A stretch of DNA of 64,000 nt from Spirochaetota bacterium (lineage in GTDB: Bacteria; Spirochaetota; UBA4802; JAFGJZ01), in NCBI GenBank assembly GCA_016928815.1, contig JAFGJZ010000192.1:4407-68406 (forward strand), given 5' to 3'. Made by a program: the position numbers and the translations under genes. The notes below the pieces were generated by a model that saw only the letters and a list, made by a program, of their open reading frames with translations, was not told the DNA's origin and searched no databases. This document shows positions 4,169 to 62,142 of the stretch, piece after piece. The number at the start of each line of letters is the position of its first letter. Within the stretch, counting starts at the first letter, position 1.

Positions 4169-4410
4169 TTCATTCTCCGTCTACTGCAGTTTTTCTTTAT
4201 TATGTCACTGTTTTTACCGTCTGTCAATATAAAATAACAGTTACGGTAGCCTGGATTACTGCTTCATTGCAATGCCGGGTTATATAATATACGAATTATC
4301 AGGCATATATGCATAAATAGAAATTGAGTATTCAGAAAAGGTTTATGAAAATTAATTTATAATATGAAATTATACTTGACATTGCTTTAATTCAGAGGAA
4401 TCATATAATT

Positions 4411-4611
4411 ATGAATATAAATTTTAATGCATTTGATAATCATAATTTCGTACTGCAGGTTCAGGATAATGAAGGTCTGACTCACAGACTTCAGAATATT
4501 GCAGGTTCAAAGTGGCATCCTGACTGCGGAATGTGGTCATTTCCGGACACACCGGAAATAATCAATGAAGTGCTTTCGATTGTTTATGAGAATTCAAAAG
4601 ATGCACATTGA
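4411..4611 (+). CDS. Hypothetical small protein (66 aa)
   Basis: ORF with AGAGGAA RBS ~10 nt upstream; no recognisable domain; sits at edge of repeat-delimited island. Confidence 0.3.
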   Translation: MNINFNAFDNHNFVLQVQDNEGLTHRLQNIAGSKWHPDCGMWSFPDTPEIINEVLSIVYENSKDAH

Positions 4612-4931
4612 CCGTTATTTTCATGCCGGATCATTTAGAAAAAAACGTAACCTCCAGGCATAAAATCTGGCGGATGCAGTTTCACACGAAAAAAGCTTCA
4701 AAACAATAATGAATAATTATGAATTCATGGCTTGTTTGATTTCTTATCTCCCGGTTAAACATAAGAAAGCTTCTCTAAACACATGAAACGGAAGAGGGCT
4801 GTTTTGTCTCGCGCGGACTTGCGGGTGGGCCTCCTTAAAAACGGTTTTTTGCATGTAAAAGTTTTTGAGCCGGTAACGATTCGGATATTCTATATGTCAA
4901 TTTAGTGTTTATAAAAATTTCCGCCGCGCGC

Positions 4932-5061
4932 AAATTTTAATTGACCTGCGCCATCAGACATGATTATGAAATAGTTGCATTTAATCACACAATATGTGAT
5001 CTTATTTCTTTGAGTGGGTTTGTCGCGGGTAAGGATTTGCCGGAGGAAATTCCTGGATGTT
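4932..5061 (+). repeat. ~130-bp intergenic repeat, copy 1 (contains TTGACC-18nt-TATGAA promoter-like element and conserved 3' end TTGCCGGAGGAAATTCCT)
   Basis: Near-identical to 6274..6403 (~90% identity by eye) and more diverged copy at 8775..8896; lies 55 bp upstream of ankyrin gene. Confidence 0.8.
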
Positions 5062-5115
5062 AGAAAATGATTCATGTAATCTGTAATAAAATGATGAGTA
5101 AACGGAGATATTATC

Positions 5116-6237
5116 ATGAAACAAGATAAAGAATTAGTATCTATACTTTGTTCAGGAAATGAGGATGATTTGGATCTTTTTCTTTCTTTATCTGAAACAT
5201 TACCAGATACTGTTATAGATGAGCATAACTGCGGATGGAGTCCTCTTGAATTTGCAGCACAACTAACTGCCAATGATAACAATCGCATTCCCCTATTGAA
5301 AAAGCTTGTCAACGTTTTGGATGAAAAAGCGCAGGCATATGCACTTATTCGTGCAGCATCAGAAGAGAATACCCTTAAGCAAGTTATAGTCCTTCTTGAA
5401 GCAGGGGTTGCACCAGATGTGCGTGGAAAAGAGGGAGAAACTGCTTTAATGAGGGCTGTCGGCAACAATAACCCTAAAGTAACTTATGCACTTCTTATCC
5501 ATGGTGCTGATCCAAAAGCACAACGAAATGATGGTAGCAGTGTATCTATATCTACTGATGGATTTAGGGATAGTCTGGTTACTCTTCTTATAAAAAGTGC
5601 GATGAGTGAAAATTTGAAATCACCCAGAGAGCTTATGATTGATGAAGAGATTATTCATTGTTTTCGTTGCTGGCTGGGTGGTCTTACCAAACTTTCAACA
5701 GATCTCAAAAGTCAGCGTCTTTACTGCCTTGCCATTGACGGAAGATATCTGAAAGCAAATACAGAGGAATCTTTTAGCAAAACGTTATTAGAGTATAGAT
5801 TAAGGGAGGAAATACGGCTGCCTACAGATCTGACCCCTCAAACACTATCGCCTGAACTTAAACAGGAAGCTGAATGGGAAATGCAATTTGATGAAGAGAT
5901 AACCCTTGAAAGATGGGTAACTGAGCGTAATGAAGAGAACAGATTTATGAATGAAATGAATGATGAAAGTCATAAAGAACATGGTTATCATTATCAAAAG
6001 CCTGATGTGATTAGACATTTGCGATTCAATCCAGGAGATTTTTCATTTGTTGTCCCTTCACATACACCTTCTTCTGCTGAACTTGACTTTAAGGCATTGA
6101 AGGAAATCAGGAAGCATGATGACCGCACTGAATCCGATCTGCTTGTTGAATTGTTTATGGATAACCGATCTGTTCTTGAGACACTATTTTCGCTTACAGA
6201 TGACTTTATTGTGATCGCACCTGGACACATATATTAA
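5116..6237 (+). CDS. Ankyrin-repeat protein (cytoplasmic, unknown function)
   Basis: 373 aa; several ANK repeats (LEFAAQLTANDN..., GETALMRAVGNNNPKVTYALLIHGADPKAQ); GGAGA RBS 7 nt upstream; no signal peptide. Confidence 0.8.
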   Translation: MKQDKELVSILCSGNEDDLDLFLSLSETLPDTVIDEHNCGWSPLEFAAQLTANDNNRIPLLKKLVNVLDEKAQAYALIRAASEENTLKQVIVLLEAGVAPDVRGKEGETALMRAVGNNNPKVTYALLIHGADPKAQRNDGSSVSISTDGFRDSLVTLLIKSAMSENLKSPRELMIDEEIIHCFRCWLGGLTKLSTDLKSQRLYCLAIDGRYLKANTEESFSKTLLEYRLREEIRLPTDLTPQTLSPELKQEAEWEMQFDEEITLERWVTERNEENRFMNEMNDESHKEHGYHYQKPDVIRHLRFNPGDFSFVVPSHTPSSAELDFKALKEIRKHDDRTESDLLVELFMDNRSVLETLFSLTDDFIVIAPGHIY

Positions 6238-6273
6238 GCATTACAAAATAATAGAGGAATGAGATTAATTATT

Positions 6274-6403
6274 AAATTTTAATTGACCTACGCCATCAGA
6301 CATGATTATGAAATAGTTGCATTTAATCACGCAATATAAGATCTTATTTCTTTGAGTAGATTTGTCGCGGGTAAGGATTTGCCGCAGGAAATTCCTGGAT
6401 GTT
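6274..6403 (+). repeat. ~130-bp intergenic repeat, copy 2
   Basis: Starts 36 bp after ankyrin stop, ends 58 bp before next gene; aligns base-for-base with copy 1 with few substitutions. Confidence 0.8.
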
Positions 6404-6461
6404 AAAAAAACATTTGGACTTCAAGATTTAGTCGTGACTATATTAAGGAGAAAATTCACAA

Positions 6462-7061
6462 TTGAATAAATCTGCTGAATATTTCATAATAGATATTAAC
6501 TATTACAAAACGCCTTGTCGCCATATAGAAATGGAAAGTGTACCAAGAATAAAAGGTATACGTTGGTTAAGGGGTCAACCATTTACTATACCAGTACCTG
6601 AACCTCTTAAGTTAAATTTTTCCAGATTAAATCGTAACCACCCTGAAATGAGTGATCGCGTTCTGAATTTTATGGATGCAGCTAAATTTCCTATCTTTAG
6701 TGATAAACTTATTTCATCACTACGTTCGTTTGGTGTTGACAATTTTGAGACATACAACTTAGAAATATATGATCCTGATAGTAATAAAGTTTATTCAAAT
6801 TACAAAGCGGTAAATATTCTTGGATTATTGAAGGCTGCGGATATGGATAAATCTACCTATACAATTTCTGATGGTATTCCTTTGGTTAATGTTGAATTTG
6901 AAGAACTACATATTGATCCAAATAAAACTCATGATTTTAAGCTATTTCGTTTAGCTGAAAAACTTGGCCCAATTTTTATACATGAAAAATTAAAAAGGTA
7001 CTTAGAATCCTGTGGTTTTGATGAGATTGTTTATTATGTAACTTCAGAAGCTGCCATATGA
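6462..7061 (+). CDS. Paralog-family protein 1 (uncharacterised ~185-aa cytoplasmic family; immunity-protein-like)
   Basis: 199 aa; TTG start with strong AAGGAGA RBS. Shares GVDNF..Y...L.D....Y.NY.AVNIIG and FRL.E...L.V motifs with 7058-, 8210-, 44571- and 45287- genes. Confidence 0.7.
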   Translation: MNKSAEYFIIDINYYKTPCRHIEMESVPRIKGIRWLRGQPFTIPVPEPLKLNFSRLNRNHPEMSDRVLNFMDAAKFPIFSDKLISSLRSFGVDNFETYNLEIYDPDSNKVYSNYKAVNILGLLKAADMDKSTYTISDGIPLVNVEFEELHIDPNKTHDFKLFRLAEKLGPIFIHEKLKRYLESCGFDEIVYYVTSEAAI

Positions 7062-7609
7062 ACTATTTTTTTTGCAGACAGGATCTTTTTTCGAATATTG
7101 ATACAGCGGAAATTAGCGGCCATACTGCAGATACTGGGAAATATTTCTGGACTTCAGGTATGAAAATCCAGGAAAAAATTCCACTTCAGGTATTGGATTT
7201 AGATACAGAATATGGAACAAAATTGCCTGCGTTTTTTGATACATCTCTTCCGGTAATGTCTTCAGGTTTAATTGATGCATTTGAGAATGCAGGTGTTGAT
7301 AATTTTGATAAATACCCTGTAATTCTTAAACGATTAGACAATGGAATGGAATATGCAAATTACTTCGCTGTTAATTTTATTGGTTGCATTGATGCGTTGG
7401 ATAAGGAAAAAACTGCAATTATTAATGAGTCTTTCCGTAGATATTCACATGTAGTAATTGATGAAAAAAAAACTCAAGGATTTAAATGTTTTAGATTAAA
7501 AGATGGTCCAAGTTTATTAGTTGTCGATGAAAATGTTAAAAAAAAATTGGAAAACCATGATTTTTATTCTTTGTTATTGCAAAAATGTGAGGATTATAAC
7601 CAAATATAA
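7058..7609 (+). CDS. Paralog-family protein 2
   Basis: 183 aa; ATGA start/stop overlap with upstream paralog (translational coupling); same conserved core motifs. Confidence 0.7.
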   Translation: MNYFFCRQDLFSNIDTAEISGHTADTGKYFWTSGMKIQEKIPLQVLDLDTEYGTKLPAFFDTSLPVMSSGLIDAFENAGVDNFDKYPVILKRLDNGMEYANYFAVNFIGCIDALDKEKTAIINESFRRYSHVVIDEKKTQGFKCFRLKDGPSLLVVDENVKKKLENHDFYSLLLQKCEDYNQI

Positions 7610-7875
7610 TAATCATGAGCACCGGTGATGCAATCAGCTCAGTGCAGGGAGTAGCAGGCAACAGGATGAAAGCCGAATGCGAGTTTATGAAGTATTCTTT
7701 TGATTTTAAGTTTGAAGGGAAGAATATGTGGCGGTTGGGAGATCCGTTGTTCCATAACAAGAAGAATATTGTGGGGTGAGGGGAAGGATTTTGATTCAAT
7801 TGTTCTATCTTGGAATTTAAAAGTCTAATTTTTTGGCAAAATAATTTAACTTTAAAAAGAAAGGAAGGACTGTAT

Positions 7876-8136
7876 ATGAATAATGATGAGTTGGGTCAAT
7901 TAATAACTCGTATTAAAAAAGATGTTTTGAAAGTCGGTGATGAAATTTACGGAGCAGTAACCAAAAAAACACCAAAAAATAATCTTACCGATTTACTTTA
8001 TCGATCTCATAATTTATTAAAGGAATATGATGATTTATTATCACAATTAAAGGGCGGGAAAAAGGAATCGCTTTTAAGTTTTGAATTTGATGTTGACCAG
8101 ATACGTGAAAACCTTAAAATAATTGAAGCAAATTAA
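7876..8136 (+). CDS. Hypothetical small helical protein (86 aa)
   Basis: AAGGAAGG RBS 7 nt upstream of ATG at 7876 (ORF extends to 7810 but RBS supports 7876); no domain recognised. Confidence 0.4.
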   Translation: MNNDELGQLITRIKKDVLKVGDEIYGAVTKKTPKNNLTDLLYRSHNLLKEYDDLLSQLKGGKKESLLSFEFDVDQIRENLKIIEAN

Positions 8137-8209
8137 CTGTGTAAATGATCGTAGATGGAAAATTGGAAGAAAGCATAACAAATCTGCATAAATGATACGG
8201 GAGAATATA

Positions 8210-8776
8210 ATGCCTTACTATTTTTTGATGCGTTCGCCAGGTGGGGATTATCAGTTATGTGACACGGATATGCCTCAACAGAAGAATGGGTTAAAAGAGA
8301 ATAGATTTATCAAAGGTTCAAAGATCAAATCGGAAGAGATTATGGAGCCTATTATAATTAATTTGCGATACATAGAAGATGTTATGCCTGAATTCTTTAT
8401 GTTTCCACTTGTATTTCGAGATGACCTGCTTGCTGATATATTGGAATTCGGAATTGAAAATATTGACAGCTATAAATGTACTTTACTGGATAACATATCA
8501 GGAAAAATCTGGACAGAGTATAAAGTGTGTAATATCATCGGAATGCTTGATGTATTTGATATGAATGCCTCAAAACTATTTGTGGATTCACCACGTGATG
8601 ATGCTTATCTATTTGATGAAATTGTAATAAATGAAAGCAAAGCATTAAATCAGCATATATTTCGCCCTTATGGACGTCCGTCTGATATTCTTATATCTGA
8701 AGAATTAAAGAACTATTTAGAAACAAAAAGTAAATATATTAACATGCAATTTGTTAAGCCAAAAAATTTTGCATAA
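8210..8776 (+). CDS. Paralog-family protein 3
   Basis: GGGAGA RBS upstream of ATG at 8210 (N-terminus MPYYFLM matches family M-x-Y-F start); conserved core motifs GIENIDSY, NIIGMLD, IFRP. Confidence 0.7.
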   Translation: MPYYFLMRSPGGDYQLCDTDMPQQKNGLKENRFIKGSKIKSEEIMEPIIINLRYIEDVMPEFFMFPLVFRDDLLADILEFGIENIDSYKCTLLDNISGKIWTEYKVCNIIGMLDVFDMNASKLFVDSPRDDAYLFDEIVINESKALNQHIFRPYGRPSDILISEELKNYLETKSKYINMQFVKPKNFA

Positions 8777-8896
8777 ATTATCATTGATCTGCGCCGTCAG
8801 ACATGATTTTGGAACAGTTACATATAATCATGCAATATATGATCTTATTTCTTTTAATGGGGTCATTGCGTGTAAGTGTTTGCCGGAGGAAATTCC
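8775..8896 (+). repeat. ~125-bp intergenic repeat, copy 3 (diverged)
   Basis: Begins at stop codon of 8210..8776; retains GCGCCGTCAGACATGA and TTGCCGGAGGAAATTCCT blocks of copies 1/2. Confidence 0.7.
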
Positions 8897-9045
8897 TATT
8901 TAAAGTCTAGTGGCAAATTTCCGGCAGTTTTCCGGATAAGTATCATATTATTAATAATTATATCCTTAAATAAAATTATATTGCAATTCATCCTTCTTTT
9001 AGCAATTATGAATCCGGAATGCAGATTTATGGCGCAAATTAATAC

Positions 9046-9987
9046 ATGGAGAAATTTATGAAAAAAATAATGACTGCTTTCATTTTTTTTGTCTCGCTGT
9101 CGGCCAATTCACAGCAGCCGGCAGATTCCGTTTATTATGACAATCTGGATGTTGTTCTAGGTAAAATTAAAAATACCAAATCCTCCATTCAGCAGGAGAC
9201 TCCCGGAGTTTTTACCGTGGAATTTAATGAAAACAAAAATAACTTCAAGCTGATGCTTACCCTTTATCCCGCTGATTCAAAAAGATTCACAGTTGAAAAT
9301 CTTAAGCAGGATCTGGCTGAAAAAGGAAAAGATCTTCTTCCAATGGCGGAAGAAAAAGAGCTTGTTATCAGCGATCTGAAAAAGGGATCCGAGACGAGAG
9401 GTTTCTTTTACATTCTGACAGATAAATCGCCTGCCAAAGGTGAATTTAAATATATTGCCCAGGGTTTTACCCGGTATAATTATCTAGTTGGATACTTTAC
9501 TTTTTTTTATAACAATAAAGATGATATCAGTATTTTCAACAGTATGGATATTACCGGTTTTGTAAAAGATACCGCTGAGATGAAAAAAACCGCGCATTTT
9601 GAAAAATTTAAACTTACCAAGGATGATATTTCTGATTACAATCTTGAATATAAACAGCATTTTTACAGTATGCAGCAGGTTATATTTTATAACAATACAG
9701 ATACATATACAACCCTGCTTTCGAACGCGGATGAAAAATATACACAGACAATCTGTTCCGGAAATGAGGAAGGAACCGTATTTTTTTATTTTTTCAGGGA
9801 AAAGCTTGATTCTGAAAAAACGGCATTTCTGACAGGGCTGTTTTACGGTGAAGAAGGGAAACCGCAGAAGGATCATCCTGAAATTATTTATGTAAAGGAT
9901 AATTATCTGGTAGTGTTTTCATATCCTTATAAAAGCAGACTTCAGGAATATCTTTTTAATAAAGTAAAAGAAAAATTTGAGAAATGA
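9046..9987 (+). CDS. Secreted hypothetical protein (313 aa; likely true start ATG 9058)
   Basis: Signal peptide MKKIMTAFIFFVSLSANSQQ; GGAGA RBS before second ATG; no recognisable domain. Confidence 0.6.
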   Translation: MEKFMKKIMTAFIFFVSLSANSQQPADSVYYDNLDVVLGKIKNTKSSIQQETPGVFTVEFNENKNNFKLMLTLYPADSKRFTVENLKQDLAEKGKDLLPMAEEKELVISDLKKGSETRGFFYILTDKSPAKGEFKYIAQGFTRYNYLVGYFTFFYNNKDDISIFNSMDITGFVKDTAEMKKTAHFEKFKLTKDDISDYNLEYKQHFYSMQQVIFYNNTDTYTTLLSNADEKYTQTICSGNEEGTVFFYFFREKLDSEKTAFLTGLFYGEEGKPQKDHPEIIYVKDNYLVVFSYPYKSRLQEYLFNKVKEKFEK

Positions 9988-11348: not shown

Positions 11349-11963
11349 ATGATTAAACTCAAACATCTGTTCATGCTGTCTCCGTACATAGGTGTAATTA
11401 CGGGGATGTATGTTTTTAAAAATGCATTTGCGGCAATTTTTATATATCATGCGGGAATTGCTGCTGCTGTTTGCCTGTTTCACGGAGAAATCTCCTTTAA
11501 CACCCTGTTTAAATTTAACAATCCCAGGCTTTTGATATTTGCATCTGCCGTATGTCTGCTGTCGGGTCTTTCAGTAGTTGTTCTATGGAACTTTATAAAA
11601 CTTCCGGGAATCAATCTGCCGGTAATCATGGAACAGTTTAAATTGTCCGGTATCAATAAATGGATATTTCTGCTGTATTTTTCCACAGTGCATCCTCTTA
11701 TTGAGGAGCTTTACTGGCGTTTTCTGGCTGATTTCCGGGGCAGATATATCTCAGTAGGAGATATCATTTTTGCCGCTTACCATATTCCTGTTCTGATATT
11801 TTTTCTAAATGCTTCATTTGTTCTGCTATGTTTCGCGGTTCTGGTCGCGGCAGCCCGTATCTGGAGATATCTTAAACAGGATTTAAATGAGAATCTTACA
11901 GTTTTTATTTCACATGCTTTTGCCGATTTCAGCATCATGCTTGCGGTATTTGCACTGTATTGA
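11349..11963 (+). CDS. CPBP family intramembrane metalloprotease (CAAX protease-like)
   Basis: 204 aa membrane protein with EELYWR (EExxxR), FAAYH and SHAF motifs characteristic of Abi/CPBP. Confidence 0.75.
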   Translation: MIKLKHLFMLSPYIGVITGMYVFKNAFAAIFIYHAGIAAAVCLFHGEISFNTLFKFNNPRLLIFASAVCLLSGLSVVVLWNFIKLPGINLPVIMEQFKLSGINKWIFLLYFSTVHPLIEELYWRFLADFRGRYISVGDIIFAAYHIPVLIFFLNASFVLLCFAVLVAAARIWRYLKQDLNENLTVFISHAFADFSIMLAVFALY

Positions 11964-42799: not shown

Positions 42800-43276
42800 A
42801 TGACTGGAAATTTAAAACTTGATAAAATCCTTTGGCAAGCGGCAGATAAAATTCACAAAAATATGGATGCGGCTGAATATATGCATGTTGTATTAGGTTT
42901 AATATTCCTGAAATATATACCAGATGCTTTTGGAGACTTATATCAAAAATTGGAAACTGCAAAACAGGAAACCGGTGCAGACCCGGAAGACAAAGATGAA
43001 TACACGGCGGAACGGGTTTTGTATGGTCCACAACAGGTTTGCTGGAAATGGCTGCAAGGCAGAGCCAATCTGTCAACTATCGGCAAAGGCATTCGTTCCT
43101 TAAAAGGGGTATTGCCTAAAGATTATGCCCGTCCTTCACCCGACAAACAAAGGTTTGACGTACTGATTAATCGTAAGCAAAAGTTTACAGCAATGCTTTC
43201 CGAACAAATGCAAAAAGCGAATGAACTGGATGATTCAATAAAAAAGAACTTGGCGAAAACCGGCTATGAAATCTGA
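42800..43276 (+). pseudogene. hsdM: Type I restriction-modification HsdM remnant (N-terminal domain fused to C-terminal tail; methyltransferase core deleted)
   Basis: [34 protein letters not shown] and [12 protein letters not shown]...DKQR match the HsdM N-domain. The ORF ends after only 158 aa with a coiled-coil-like tail ([17 protein letters not shown]). The catalytic N6-MTase domain is absent. Confidence 0.6.
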
Positions 43277-44195
43277 CAGTAAAATATCCATACGCTTTTT
43301 TGACGACCGTGAGGTTCGGGCACTCTGGGATGAAGAAAAGTCCAAATGGTGGTTTTCCGTATTGGACATAGTGGCAGTGCTTCGGGACCAGAGTGATTAT
43401 AATAAAAACCGCAACTACTGGAAATACCTTAAAGCAAAACTGAAGCAGGAAAACAGGCAGTTGGTTAGCGCCACTACCCAACTGAAACTCACCGCTGCAG
43501 ATGGTAAAAAATACAAATCCGATATGCTCGATTACGAAGGTATTATTGCTTTGGGTAAAGAATTTCCAAGTAAAAAAGCCAACCGTTTTATTGAATGGTT
43601 TACCTATAGTGATGAGACTATTGATGGTAAAAGCAAAACCAAAGCCTATGCATTTTTTGAAAGTTCATTTATTGACAGTATAGAAGTGGGTACTACAAGA
43701 GGATTGCAGCAGATACACGCCTATTTGTTTGGAGGACTCTATGACTTTGCAGGGCAAATCCGGCAGAAGAATATATCTAAAGGGGGATTTCGTTTTGCCA
43801 TGGTACAACACCTTGAGCAGACCCTGCAACAGATTGACCAAATGCCTGAAACCACTTTTCAGGAAATAACTGATAAATATGTGGAGATGAACATCGCCCA
43901 CCCTTTTATGGAAGGTAATGGCAGAAGCACACGAATTTGGCTCGATATGATACTGAAAAAACGGTTGAAGCGCTGTGTGGACTGGAGCCGTATTAGTAAA
44001 AACGACTACATGGACGCCATGGTACAAAGCCCGGTGAATAGCACACCGCTAAAAACTCTTATTAAAAATGCCCTGACAGACGAAATAGACAGCCGGGAAA
44101 TGTATATGAAGGGCATTGATTATTCTTATTATTATGAAGAGAGTCAGAATCATGATTCGGTTGAGTTTCCTGATAATCAGGGTGCAGATGTATGA
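43266..44195 (+). CDS. Fic-family protein with N-terminal Bro-N/RhuM-like DNA-binding domain
   Basis: Fic motif [14 protein letters not shown]; N-terminal [29 protein letters not shown]; start overlaps hsdM-remnant stop. Confidence 0.85.
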
Positions 44196-44570: not shown

Positions 44571-45122
44571 ATGGAATATTTTATAATGGATGAAGTTGCA
44601 GGTAATCCTTATATTCCTTACATTGGTGATCTGCCAGAAGAGTTAGATATGATAGATGTAGCTATCGGAAAAAAAGTTGATATCAACGATGTCCCAATTC
44701 AATTACCTGTAAGCATTGGAGACGTATCAGAAGTTGAATACCCTGACTTATTAACTGGAAATGTCCCATTGTTTTCTGAGAAACTGAAGTTCGCTTTAGA
44801 TGAAACTGGAATTGATAATATCGATTATTTTCAAGTTGATCTTATCAACGAAGAAGATGGGAAAACTGTTGCTAAATATTATCTTGGAATTGTTATTGGA
44901 TTGATAAAATGTCTAAAAAGTGGTTTAACGTCAAGCCCTGCGGGCAGAGACATTTTAAAGAACCCGGTAATAGATTTTTCCCTTGTTCGCGGTCAAAAAC
45001 TTTTTCGACTTGCGGAATCGCCATTATTAATTATTGTTGATTCGAGCGTAAAAGATGCTCTTTCAAAGATTAATCTTCAAGGTGTCTCACTGCTTCGATT
45101 GAAGGATTATGAAAGTTTTTAG
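44571..45122 (+). CDS. Paralog-family protein 4
   Basis: 183 aa; MEYFIMDE start, GIDNIDYF, IVIGLI, KLFRLAES, SVKDAL motifs shared with 6462/7058/8210 genes. Confidence 0.7.
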   Translation: MEYFIMDEVAGNPYIPYIGDLPEELDMIDVAIGKKVDINDVPIQLPVSIGDVSEVEYPDLLTGNVPLFSEKLKFALDETGIDNIDYFQVDLINEEDGKTVAKYYLGIVIGLIKCLKSGLTSSPAGRDILKNPVIDFSLVRGQKLFRLAESPLLIIVDSSVKDALSKINLQGVSLLRLKDYESF

Positions 45123-45286
45123 GATTCGAAAACATTTTTTGACATCCAAACATTTTATGTTCAATCTTTCAAAAACATGAACTTTAATAATAGATCCGGG
45201 AATTCATTTCCCAACCCATTAGCAAAAGAAGGAAAACAGCACGTTAAATTTGTTTATATTCTTTGCAATTTTATTGGAGATTTTTT

Positions 45287-45835
45287 ATGTACTGGGTCAT
45301 AGAAGCAGATTTACAGGTTAAAGGTTTAGCATCTATCATGGACTTACCGGATGACATTGAAGGCATGGAATGGATGTGTGGTAAAGAAATGCCTGATCGA
45401 AAACAACCAATATCACTTAATTTAAACCGTGGAAGCGGTTCTTTTCGCGGTGATATAATGGGTGGAATTTTACCATTATACTCAGATGACCTTAGAGATC
45501 TGTTTAATGAATATGGCATAAATAATATACAATATTTTCCTGTGGATATAACTGATACAATTCTGAATGAAGTTGAATATGGTTATTCATTGGTAAATAT
45601 AATAGGGTTAATTTCCTGCGTAAAAAATTATGATTTTAATTTATCTCCGCTTGCACGTCCTTCAAGTCTTGAAAAATTTTCAATTGATCCAGCCAAGACT
45701 TTTAATCTTCCAATTTTTCGTCTTTTTGAATCTCGTCGTTTAATAGTAATAAATGACGACTTGCGGAATTATTTATCTGATAAAGGACTTGCGGGTGTAA
45801 GAATAACAAAGACTGAAGAATATACTGTCTGGTAA
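45287..45835 (+). CDS. Paralog-family protein 5
   Basis: ORF extends to 45263 but family alignment supports the MYWVIEAD start (45287); GINNIQYF, NIIGLI, IFRLFESRRLIVIND motifs. Confidence 0.7.
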   Translation: MYWVIEADLQVKGLASIMDLPDDIEGMEWMCGKEMPDRKQPISLNLNRGSGSFRGDIMGGILPLYSDDLRDLFNEYGINNIQYFPVDITDTILNEVEYGYSLVNIIGLISCVKNYDFNLSPLARPSSLEKFSIDPAKTFNLPIFRLFESRRLIVINDDLRNYLSDKGLAGVRITKTEEYTVW

Positions 45836-48301: not shown

Positions 48302-49351
48302 ATGGATGGTAATTTACTTGAGTTAATTAATGAGTATCATGAAAGAAATGAACATGCCGAAGTAATAAACAGGATTCTTTCGCTTAAAAAACAGAATCTT
48401 GACTACACGATGACTTTTTATCTCGCGAATGCATACAGCAGTGTTGATGAACATGAACATGCCGTCAGTCTTCTTTTAAAGGTAAGGCATGAAGGTGAAC
48501 AGGATCCGGAATGGCACTGCCGTCTTGCCAGAGCCTATTCAGGACTGAATAACTATGCGAAAACGGTATATCATTCCGAAGCCGCGGCCGCTCTTGATAA
48601 AAGCCGTGTCAGTGAACTGTCTGAAATACTTGCAGAGGCTTATGCAAAATCAGGATGTCTGAAAAAGGCGAAAGAACTTGTCGACAGATATGATCTGAAA
48701 ATTTTCAGTCCCGAAGTGTATACTGAAAATGAACTGAGTGCAGTCAGCCGGCATATTGAGCGTCACTTCGGAAAGGTGAGCCGGGTTCTGCACGAAGTCC
48801 TGTCTCCCGACATCAGGGTTGATATCATGGTTGTCGAACCTCAGAACGGAAGAAATTATCTGACGCTTGTTACTTCCGGAATGGGTGCGCATAAAATGAA
48901 TGTACCGCAGAATCTGCTGAACCGGAATGTTGACCGGGCGGAATTAATAATGTGTCTTCCTCCTGAATGGGATATCGGTAGCATCAGCGGAAACTGGTTC
49001 TGGCCGCTACTGTGGATGAAGATAATGGCCAGACTTCCGATTAAAGAAGACAGCTGGCTGGGGTGGGGGCATACTGTTCCGAACAGCTGTGCGTTTGCCG
49101 ATAATACATGTTTATCCGGAATATTTCTTGATCATCCCCATAGTTCCGGTGAGGAATCATTTGCCTGTAAACTGAATACGGGAGAAGCGGTTAATTTTTA
49201 TCAGATGATTCCGCTGTATGACGAGGAAATGGAATATAAAATCATGTACGGAACATCCGCGCTTCTCGGTCTTGTAAACGGTAATTTCCCGGAGATAGTG
49301 GATGTCCGCCGGAAAAATTTCTGCAGCGGAAACACGGATATAATACATTGA
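48302..49351 (+). CDS. TPR-like N-terminus + SUFU-like (suppressor-of-fused) domain protein
   Basis: C-terminal half (LVTSGMGAHKM...ELIMCLPPEWD...WPLLWMK...WLGWGHTV...FLDHP...GEAVNFYQMIPLYDEE) fits bacterial SUFU-family architecture; cytoplasmic. Confidence 0.55.
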   Translation: MDGNLLELINEYHERNEHAEVINRILSLKKQNLDYTMTFYLANAYSSVDEHEHAVSLLLKVRHEGEQDPEWHCRLARAYSGLNNYAKTVYHSEAAAALDKSRVSELSEILAEAYAKSGCLKKAKELVDRYDLKIFSPEVYTENELSAVSRHIERHFGKVSRVLHEVLSPDIRVDIMVVEPQNGRNYLTLVTSGMGAHKMNVPQNLLNRNVDRAELIMCLPPEWDIGSISGNWFWPLLWMKIMARLPIKEDSWLGWGHTVPNSCAFADNTCLSGIFLDHPHSSGEESFACKLNTGEAVNFYQMIPLYDEEMEYKIMYGTSALLGLVNGNFPEIVDVRRKNFCSGNTDIIH

Positions 49352-55693: not shown

Positions 55694-55785
55694 GGTGTAA
55701 CCATCCTGAATTATAATATTATTAGGCGTCGTTGTTCCGACCGTCTATGCATGAAATATGTCATGAATTCCGGTTTAAATCGGTC

Positions 55786-55834
55786 GGATTTATAATTCCG
55801 GATATAATTTCAGGATTGGATTTATAATTCCGGA
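55786..55834. promoter_or_regulatory. Tandem array of TATAATTCCGGA-type motif (3 copies, ~16-bp spacing)
   Basis: GGATTTATAATTCCGGA / TATAATTTCAGGATT / GGATTTATAATTCCGGA; a matching array occurs at 62092..62142. Confidence 0.55.
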
Positions 55835-61956: not shown

Positions 61957-62091
61957 AAGCTATGTCTCCAGTAATAAAATTGCCGCTTTTTTTATCAGGC
62001 GTTCAGTTTAATCAACGAACGGTTATAATTTCCGTTAACCGATCATTTTTGATTACTGATAATATTGCATAGCTTAATGAAAAAATCGGTT

Positions 62092-62142
62092 GAAATTATA
62101 ATTCCGGATAAATATAATAGGCTGGAATTATAATTCAGGATT
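62092..62142. promoter_or_regulatory. Second array of TATAATTCCGGA-type motif
   Basis: GAAATTATAATTCCGGA ...GGAATTATAATTCAGGATT; same orientation as 55786..55834; ends 9 bp before ATG 62151. Confidence 0.55.

Follow-up and report, generated by a model that had tools for sequence, protein, structure and literature searches.

Five genes in a stretch of 64,000 nucleotides (nt) from a Spirochaetota metagenome-assembled genome (MAG) (contig JAFGJZ010000192.1), here called the window and numbered from its first letter, are best explained as encoding Imm11 immunity proteins that were kept without an intact toxin, forming an orphan polyimmunity locus derived from reduced toxin operons. We put the probability of this reading at roughly 80%. 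Three of the genes share a mixed block with an ankyrin gene (5116 to 8776), and the other two form a pair 36 kb away (44571 to 45835). Both loci hold at least two tandem immunity genes and no intact toxin gene, which is what defines a polyimmunity locus. An earlier note, made from the sequence alone, had proposed either an orphan immunity-gene island or an uncharacterized accessory system. The first proposal is supported by the family, the fold, the linkage to AHH nucleases in relatives, the scars of toxin genes, and the lack of an intact toxin in 64 kb; the second is not needed.

Five diverged paralogs at two loci

Imm11-1 (6462 to 7061, 199 amino acids [aa]), Imm11-2 (7058 to 7609, 183 aa), and Imm11-3 (8210 to 8776, 188 aa) make up the first group, and Imm11-4 (44571 to 45122, 183 aa) and Imm11-5 (45287 to 45835, 182 aa) make up the second. 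All five open reading frames (ORFs) lie on the + strand where the earlier note had placed them, intact and collinear. A family hidden Markov model (HMM) run over the six frames of the whole window recovered exactly these five members and no fragments of further ones. Their MAFFT alignment is collinear from end to end with 12 invariant columns, and all ten pairs give significant BLASTP matches (26 to 32% identity, E 6e-20 to 5e-6); by these comparisons, homology among the five is far beyond chance. The motif set first described as common to them stands as a fair, collinear consensus, but some members lack a literal match: the motif K/P-L/I-FRL-A/F-E is kept in three paralogs and reads KCFRLKD in Imm11-2 and HIFRPYG in Imm11-3.

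The translational coupling suggested for Imm11-1 and Imm11-2 has its ATGA overlap at 7058 to 7061. Imm11-1 opens with a TTG codon at 6462, preceded by AAGGAG 11 nt upstream, and its N-terminal EYFIID agrees with the N terminus of the family, so that this TTG is likely the true start. The ATG starts of Imm11-3 (8210) and Imm11-5 (45287) have GGGAG and GGAG upstream, respectively. No hydrophobic N terminus can be read in any of the five sequences, as expected for the cytoplasmic proteins without signal peptides that had been predicted.

The paralogs are members of the Imm11 family

The paralogs had been left without a family name. By profile comparison, all five belong to Pfam PF07791 (Imm11, formerly DUF1629). 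Four of them pass the curated gathering cutoff of 22.1 bits: Imm11-1 with 35.8 bits (E 6.5e-9), Imm11-2 with 42.6 bits (E 5.6e-11), Imm11-3 with 29.2 bits (E 6.9e-7), and Imm11-4 with 35.2 bits (E 9.9e-9). Imm11-5 falls under it (13.2 bits, E 0.056) but nonetheless matches Imm11-4 in BLASTP at E 6e-20 and an HMM built solely from 39 homologues outside the window at E 9.7e-37. This external HMM finds the five paralogs at E 1e-32 to 1e-65 (Imm11-1, 1.7e-54; Imm11-3, 1.3e-32; Imm11-4, 1.1e-65), and the best of 1000 shuffled control sequences reached 6.9 bits. None of the profile searches pointed to a family of housekeeping enzymes. The family is large: in a set of 1.84 billion, 2953 cluster representatives reach E≤1e-3, and 1064 reach E≤1e-10. 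The relatives are nearly all single-domain proteins of 180 to 200 aa, and NCBI labels them "imm11 family protein."

A profile of the window's five proteins alone matches one solved structure, PDB 6A4C (E 2.8e-14), which is MXAN_0049 of Myxococcus xanthus, the experimentally studied Imm11 prototype. Structure prediction points the same way. The AlphaFold2 model of Imm11-2, the sole member modeled, has a predicted local distance difference test (pLDDT) score of 93.2 and a predicted template modeling (pTM) score of 0.88. When this model was compared with the PDB by Foldseek, 6A4C was the sole match at E≤0.001 (E 1.9e-10, TM-scores 0.72/0.63, probability 1.00), with about 18% identity to MXAN_0049 in the structural alignment. 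The predicted structure of Imm11-2 thus matches the alpha+beta fold of MXAN_0049.

What is this family known to do? A survey by Zhang et al. (2012, PMC3482391) defined Imm11 as an immunity family that counters Tox-AHH, Tox-HNH, and Tox-SHH nucleases. According to the same survey, it occurs in polyimmunity loci of both the homogeneous and the heterogeneous type, and some members are fusions with SuFu. In M. xanthus, MXAN_0049 neutralizes the AHH nuclease MXAN_0050, as found by pull-down and nuclease assays (PMC12077131; see also PMC12077181), and the toxin is delivered by a type VI secretion system (T6SS) together with a single-domain PAAR protein (PMC12077131). MXAN_0049 and three homologues bind and neutralize AHH nucleases (PMC12077131), and the genome holds 14 ahh loci and 20 imm11 genes, with one or two extra imm11 genes at some toxin loci (PMC12077181). 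The window proteins resemble MXAN_0049 in family, fold, size, single-domain architecture, lack of a signal peptide, and occurrence as multiple diverged paralogs, and their relatives share with it the operon order of PAAR-like, AHH, and Imm11 genes. They differ from it in that an intact toxin or PAAR gene is missing from the window and that their host is a Spirochaete MAG and not a myxobacterium; binding and neutralization are known from the M. xanthus homologues. Each paralog would bind a different AHH-type nuclease (HNH/EndoVII fold) and block its DNase activity in the cytoplasm, and the set would likely protect the cell from several AHH toxins injected by neighboring bacteria. In the best-studied and closest systems, a small PAAR-like protein carries such toxins, and a T6SS delivers them.

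Relatives of the window genes follow AHH nuclease genes

The gene neighborhoods of relatives, a check that the earlier note had proposed, link the family to toxins. A genome scan with the Imm11-1 clade (35 to 46% identity) gave 27 loci from many phyla, onto which local HMMs for PAAR-like, AHH, and Imm11 proteins were mapped. An AHH gene lies immediately upstream of Imm11 in 17 of the 27 loci; 12 of 20 upstream neighbors match the Pfam AHH model, and these neighbors carry the signature AAHHLIPGN...GYNVN...FHD.H. In 8 loci, AHH is directly preceded by a PAAR-like gene, which in 3 others is at most a few kilobases away; one locus (L086) has the order DUF2169, PAAR-like, AHH. The usual operon in relatives is a small PAAR-like protein followed by an AHH nuclease and Imm11. 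Single-copy relatives exist as well, but their neighbors are accessory genes, and none is embedded in a conserved core operon.

The two closest relatives of Imm11-2 are both linked to AHH. P0004 (76% identity) directly follows the gene for a 242-aa AHH toxin. Its nucleotide homology to Imm11-2 spans the ORF and does not extend past either end of it, with a ratio of nonsynonymous to synonymous substitution rates (dN/dS) of 0.12; Imm11-2 is under purifying selection. P0017 (56% identity) is found in the order AHH, Imm11, PAAR-like, and a 422-aa protein, and its succession of Imm11 and PAAR-like genes equals that of Imm11-2 and a PAAR-like remnant in the window.

Other relatives occur in toxin-less arrays: three copies beside Imm49 in L016, three copies in L020, nine in L025, and two in L034, the last two being Spirochaetota and Spirochaetes MAGs, respectively, of the same phylum as the window. 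In L025 (5797 to 12520), nine Imm11 paralogs on both strands are packed within 7 kb with no toxin, which is a large homogeneous polyimmunity locus.

Scars of toxin genes beside intact immunity genes

The first locus retains parts of two toxin-operon genes on the + strand. One is an AHH scar at 6406 to 6465, comprising the last 19 codons (KNIWTSRFSRDYIKEKIHN) at 6406 to 6462 and a TGA at 6463 to 6465. It matches positions 257 to 274 of a 278-position HMM built from 13 AHH toxins whose genes precede those of Imm11 relatives (E 0.0015 when all six-frame segments of the window were searched), and KNIWTSRFSRDYIKEKIHN compares with AHH toxin C termini ending in ...KKNVFTSRFSEKYIEDEIY. Its TGA overlaps the TTG start of Imm11-1 (6462 to 6464), and its 5' side is fused to the 3' end of a copy of the intergenic repeat described below. 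From the match to the toxin tail and the overlap, it follows that Imm11-1 still carries the last 19 codons of a former toxin gene. An ~84-codon stop-to-stop frame with a partial match to the AHH model, directly upstream of Imm11 in an uncultured Marinomonas MAG (L019, 5653 to 5904), may be a second, independent toxin scar.

The other remnant (7615 to 7779) begins 5 nt past the stop codon of Imm11-2, between Imm11-2 and Imm11-3, and consists of the C-terminal 54 codons of a PAAR-like (DUF4150) gene whose N-terminal ~40 codons are missing. It scores 46 bits (cutoff 31, E 6.3e-12) against Pfam PF13665 (Tox-PAAR-like), covering profile positions 55 to 108 of 108, and is 60 to 74% identical to the C-terminal part of stand-alone PAAR-like proteins of 90 to 101 aa. 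Scar and relatives end alike (...RLGDPLFHNKKNIMG), one of the relatives standing in the order DUF2169, PAAR-like, AHH. Its guanine-plus-cytosine (GC) content is 44% against ~31% around it. Half a gene for a T6SS spike-tip protein is unexpected in a Spirochaete genome.

Beyond these two scars, no AHH, PAAR, or other toxin domain was found in the ORFs or the six frames of the 64-kb window, nor any VgrG, Hcp, or other secretion gene, and 59 intergenic six-frame segments from both loci gave no Pfam match at E≤0.01 that would indicate more toxin remnants. The full-length PAAR-like and AHH genes that precede Imm11 in relatives are represented in the window by partial remnants alone. The statement that the loci are without any toxin gene therefore stands for intact genes and has to be amended for the 3' remnant of an AHH gene and half of a PAAR-like gene. 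The first block would have been assembled from at least two former PAAR-like/AHH/Imm11 operons, probably acquired horizontally, whose toxin and delivery genes were then lost; the deletions would have left 19 AHH codons fused to Imm11-1 and half a PAAR-like gene between Imm11-2 and Imm11-3.

The same scars raise the question of whether the Imm11 genes are themselves in decay, as relics of dead toxin operons that no longer serve a function. The truncated AHH and PAAR-like genes adjoining them, a truncated HsdM fragment at the second locus, and the AT-rich intergenic DNA around them would fit such decay. However, all five ORFs are full length and keep the invariant residues of the family, plausible ribosome-binding sites are present, and the dN/dS of Imm11-2 against its 76% relative is low; the loss of toxin parts while every immunity ORF stayed intact argues for selection on immunity and makes simple decay very unlikely.

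Are the five genes really orphans? They might instead be spare or cognate immunity genes for AHH toxins encoded elsewhere in the same genome, as is conceivable from the extra imm11 genes beside M. xanthus toxin loci (PMC12077181) and from relatives in which AHH is followed by two or three Imm11 genes (L015, L030). Against this, the 64 kb contain no intact toxin, PAAR, VgrG, Hcp, or secretion gene, and the toxin genes that once flanked Imm11 copies are cut to scars, as expected if immunity was kept and the toxin lost. We consider cognate toxins elsewhere in the genome unlikely.

Some points weigh against an orphan polyimmunity locus. The window is 64 kb of the genome, and cognate AHH toxins beyond it could end the orphan status. 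The AHH scar is identified by 19 residues and by its position. Expression of the five proteins in this organism, the toxins that they would neutralize, and the origin of these toxins in other organisms are inferred. Spirochaetes are not known to carry T6SSs, which bears on the route by which the relevant toxins would be delivered in this habitat. Finally, members of the Imm11-4 clade have no adjacent toxin in any of 5 contexts, being lone genes or parts of toxin-less arrays, so that the presumed target of Imm11-4, and by extension of Imm11-5, follows from family membership.

This last point, together with the position of the second locus beside Fic and restriction-modification remnants in a setting like a defense island, could also mean that the proteins share the Imm11 fold but serve a function unrelated to toxin immunity, e.g., regulation or phage defense. 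Yet sequence and fold unite all five with MXAN_0049 in one family, one member of the Imm11-4 clade (L090) sits in a co-directional array of leucine-rich-repeat, ankyrin, and small-ORF genes typical of polyimmunity loci, and the literature surveyed, including PMC12077181 and the available parts of PMC3482391, reports no other function for the family. An unrelated function is extremely improbable.

A private repeat bounds the gene blocks of the first island

Three copies of a 141-nt repeat, all on the + strand, bound the gene blocks of the first island. Copy 1 (4924 to 5080; nhmmer E 3e-52) lies directly upstream of the ankyrin gene; copy 2 (6266 to 6422), 93% identical to copy 1, precedes the AHH scar and the Imm11 cluster; and copy 3 (8768 to 8922), 75% identical to copy 1, runs from the stop codon of Imm11-3 and precedes a gene for a 309-aa protein. 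No copy was found at the second locus by nhmmer. True copies elsewhere were sought with a two-block pattern, which had 0 matches in genome contigs and 0 in metagenome contigs. A 19-mer of the repeat alone gave 49 matches, all restricted to the seed and hence attributable to chance. A repeat HMM found nothing in loci L001 to L084, including the Spirochaetota loci L025, L031, and L034; a Logan contig of the same organism (L001) begins inside copy 2.

The nature of the repeat was examined in several ways. As a structured RNA or known element it was rejected: Rfam gave nothing at gathering score in the window and nothing at E≤5 in 4200 to 9100, and the consensus folds are weak, with -14.7 and -10.2 kcal/mol on the two strands and one compensated pair each. 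In some copies a frame is open on each strand, one + and one -, but a coding remnant was rejected too, there being no third-position excess and 1 to 6 synonymous versus 14 to 19 nonsynonymous codons in every frame. Palindromes are limited to 4 to 6 bp; ATCA-GACA-TGAT and AGGAA-A-TTCCT are conserved in all copies, and ATCACA-CAATA-TGTGAT shows compensation in copy 3 but has lost its pairing in copy 2. A scan with the sigma-70 consensus found no site within the repeats; by eye, TTGACC-18-TATGAA can be read in copies 1 and 2, degraded in copy 3. We regard the repeat as a shared upstream or leader segment that was duplicated as blocks were added.

Could the repeats instead belong to an active cassette-capture system, integron-like or similar to rAID-1 of Bacteroidales? 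The copies stand exactly at block boundaries, copy 3 even beginning at a stop codon, and the blocks are low in GC. The rAID-1 arrays combine orphan immunity genes, a GC content below that of the host, and repetitive intergenic sequences (Ross et al. 2019, bioRxiv 10.1101/471110), a combination that the window may share, and they are presumed to protect against toxins of other species (bioRxiv 10.1101/471110). In L031, moreover, ankyrin and Imm11 genes each stand behind their own repeat. However, rAID-1 is defined by a 5' recombinase with >44% identity (bioRxiv 10.1101/471110), and the window, from a Spirochaete host, has no XerD-like recombinase and no sign of mobility. No Phage_integrase, tyrosine recombinase, or other recombinase or integrase was found in the ORFs or the intergenic six-frame segments in and around either locus. 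The ORF upstream of copy 1, of 66 aa, has no homologue. Nor are there more than three repeats, all at the first locus, with none in genome or metagenome collections. Integrons differ further in having an integrase and attC sites; the repeat folds weakly and lacks an attC-like paired-arm structure. As the data are accounted for just as well if a common upstream or promoter region was simply duplicated, an active capture system appears quite unlikely.

The 66-aa ORF (JW982_16770, 4411 to 4611) is flanked by the core gene DUF1295 and copy 1. A search of 5.8 billion proteins recovered nothing but the ORF itself, Pfam and NCBIfam gave no match, and the idea that it is the N-terminal remnant of a recombinase is therefore unsupported.

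The repeat family of L031 (2407 to 8057, Spirochaetota MAG LOGT_bin.0113) is unrelated in sequence. Five copies of 66 to 147 nt precede two small membrane proteins, an ankyrin lipoprotein, Imm11, a LysE gene, and another ORF, and their core reads as promoter-like, with an A/T-rich UP-like element and TTGCAT-17-AATATT. It is a long shot, but the repeats of the window and of L031 might mark a recombinase-independent stacking of foreign immunity genes in Spirochaetota. Each gene, once captured, would come to lie after a duplicate of a resident promoter or leader segment, and homologous recombination between copies would drive gain, loss, and shuffling. If true, Spirochaetota, whose interbacterial defense has hardly been studied, would have a functional counterpart of the rAID-1 of Bacteroidales.

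Other genes of the two islands and base composition

The ankyrin gene that opens the first block (5116 to 6237, + strand) encodes 373 aa with N-terminal ankyrin repeats at aa 53 to 145 (Pfam Ank_2, E 1.2e-8); its C-terminal ~220 aa have no Pfam match even at E 10. At the second locus, a TPR and SUFU protein (48302 to 49351, + strand; Pfam SUFU, E 3.8e-41) is encoded 2.5 kb downstream of Imm11-5, past two genes on the opposite strand. The reported co-occurrence of ankyrin and SUFU proteins with the paralogs is therefore correct for both domains, with the SUFU gene being not adjacent to the Imm11 pair. PMC3482391 also catalogues Imm-ank and Imm-SuFu as immunity folds and lists Imm-ank with Tox-AHH. 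By analogy, the ankyrin protein is a candidate Imm-ank type immunity protein, and the TPR-SUFU protein may be an Imm-SuFu immunity protein.

Between the PAAR-like scar and Imm11-3, in the usual position of AHH, lies an unassigned ORF (7876 to 8136, + strand) of 86 aa, or 108 aa from a TTG at 7810, which is probably helical. It has no Pfam or NCBIfam match and no detectable homologue, and its identification as an AHH remnant or a PAAR-linked effector was rejected, as it shows no similarity to AHH or to the effectors of L085 and L086. The 309-aa protein encoded after repeat copy 3 (9058 to 9987, + strand; GC 34%) has a signal-like N terminus and no family match, and may be a third block of the first island, e.g., a periplasmic immunity protein.

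Immediately upstream of Imm11-4 and Imm11-5, at 42800 to 44195, a 158-aa fragment that comprises an HsdM N-terminal domain and nothing else shares 11 nt with the gene for a 309-aa protein with Bro-N and Fic domains, an NmFic-type adenylyltransferase (NCBIfam E 2.7e-83). The arrangement resembles a decayed type I restriction-modification locus with an embedded Fic gene, and the second locus is another accessory patch.

The Imm11 genes have a GC content of 31 to 35%, below the 40 to 43% of flanking core genes (FolD, FakA-DegV, PlsY, and an acyltransferase), which makes their foreign origin plausible. The genes of the window, locus tags JW982_16770 to JW982_16955, further include MCP, GGDEF, ABC sugar uptake, and AcrB/OEP genes, a content that fits a diderm, motile, saccharolytic bacterium.

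Two further observations concern the rest of the window. A 204-aa membrane protein (11349 to 11963) has the EExxxR and FxxxH motifs typical of CPBP/Abi intramembrane proteases and matches Pfam Rce1-like at no better than E 5.4; proteases of this kind are often tied to bacteriocin self-immunity. A 58-nt direct repeat (55777 to 55834 and 62083 to 62140, 76% identity) flanks a block of AraC-regulator, AcrB, and OEP genes; each copy holds a duplicated GGATTTATAATTCCGGA-like motif, and the pair may be operator sites.

Place among known systems and meaning for the organism

The window loci resemble the polyimmunity loci of PMC3482391, in the available parts of which tandem diversified immunity genes without a toxin are described with Imm11 named explicitly, and heterogeneous loci mix Imm11 with Imm-ank, as here, where Imm-SuFu is also near. 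They differ in their small size (three plus two genes), the AHH and PAAR-like scars, and the private 141-nt repeat; toxin scars and a block-boundary repeat were not found described for polyimmunity loci in those parts of the source. A toxin-gene fragment ahead of an immunity gene also recalls the orphan toxin C-terminus (toxin-CT)/immunity modules of rhs and cdi loci, but the window fragment is the last 19 toxin codons, with no upstream main toxin gene for recombination.

With these results, five "hypothetical proteins" of a Spirochaete MAG are assigned to a family for which a structure has been solved and a function tested. Both this family and loci of this kind have been described before, and the textbook polyimmunity island mostly changes nothing. 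The private repeat is a lead on how the blocks were assembled. The two scars form an unusually legible record of the origin of the island, in which the toxin and delivery genes were deleted and the immunity ORFs kept, and they imply that the bacterium, whose phylum is not noted for T6SSs, is, or was, exposed to PAAR-loaded AHH nucleases from its neighbors.

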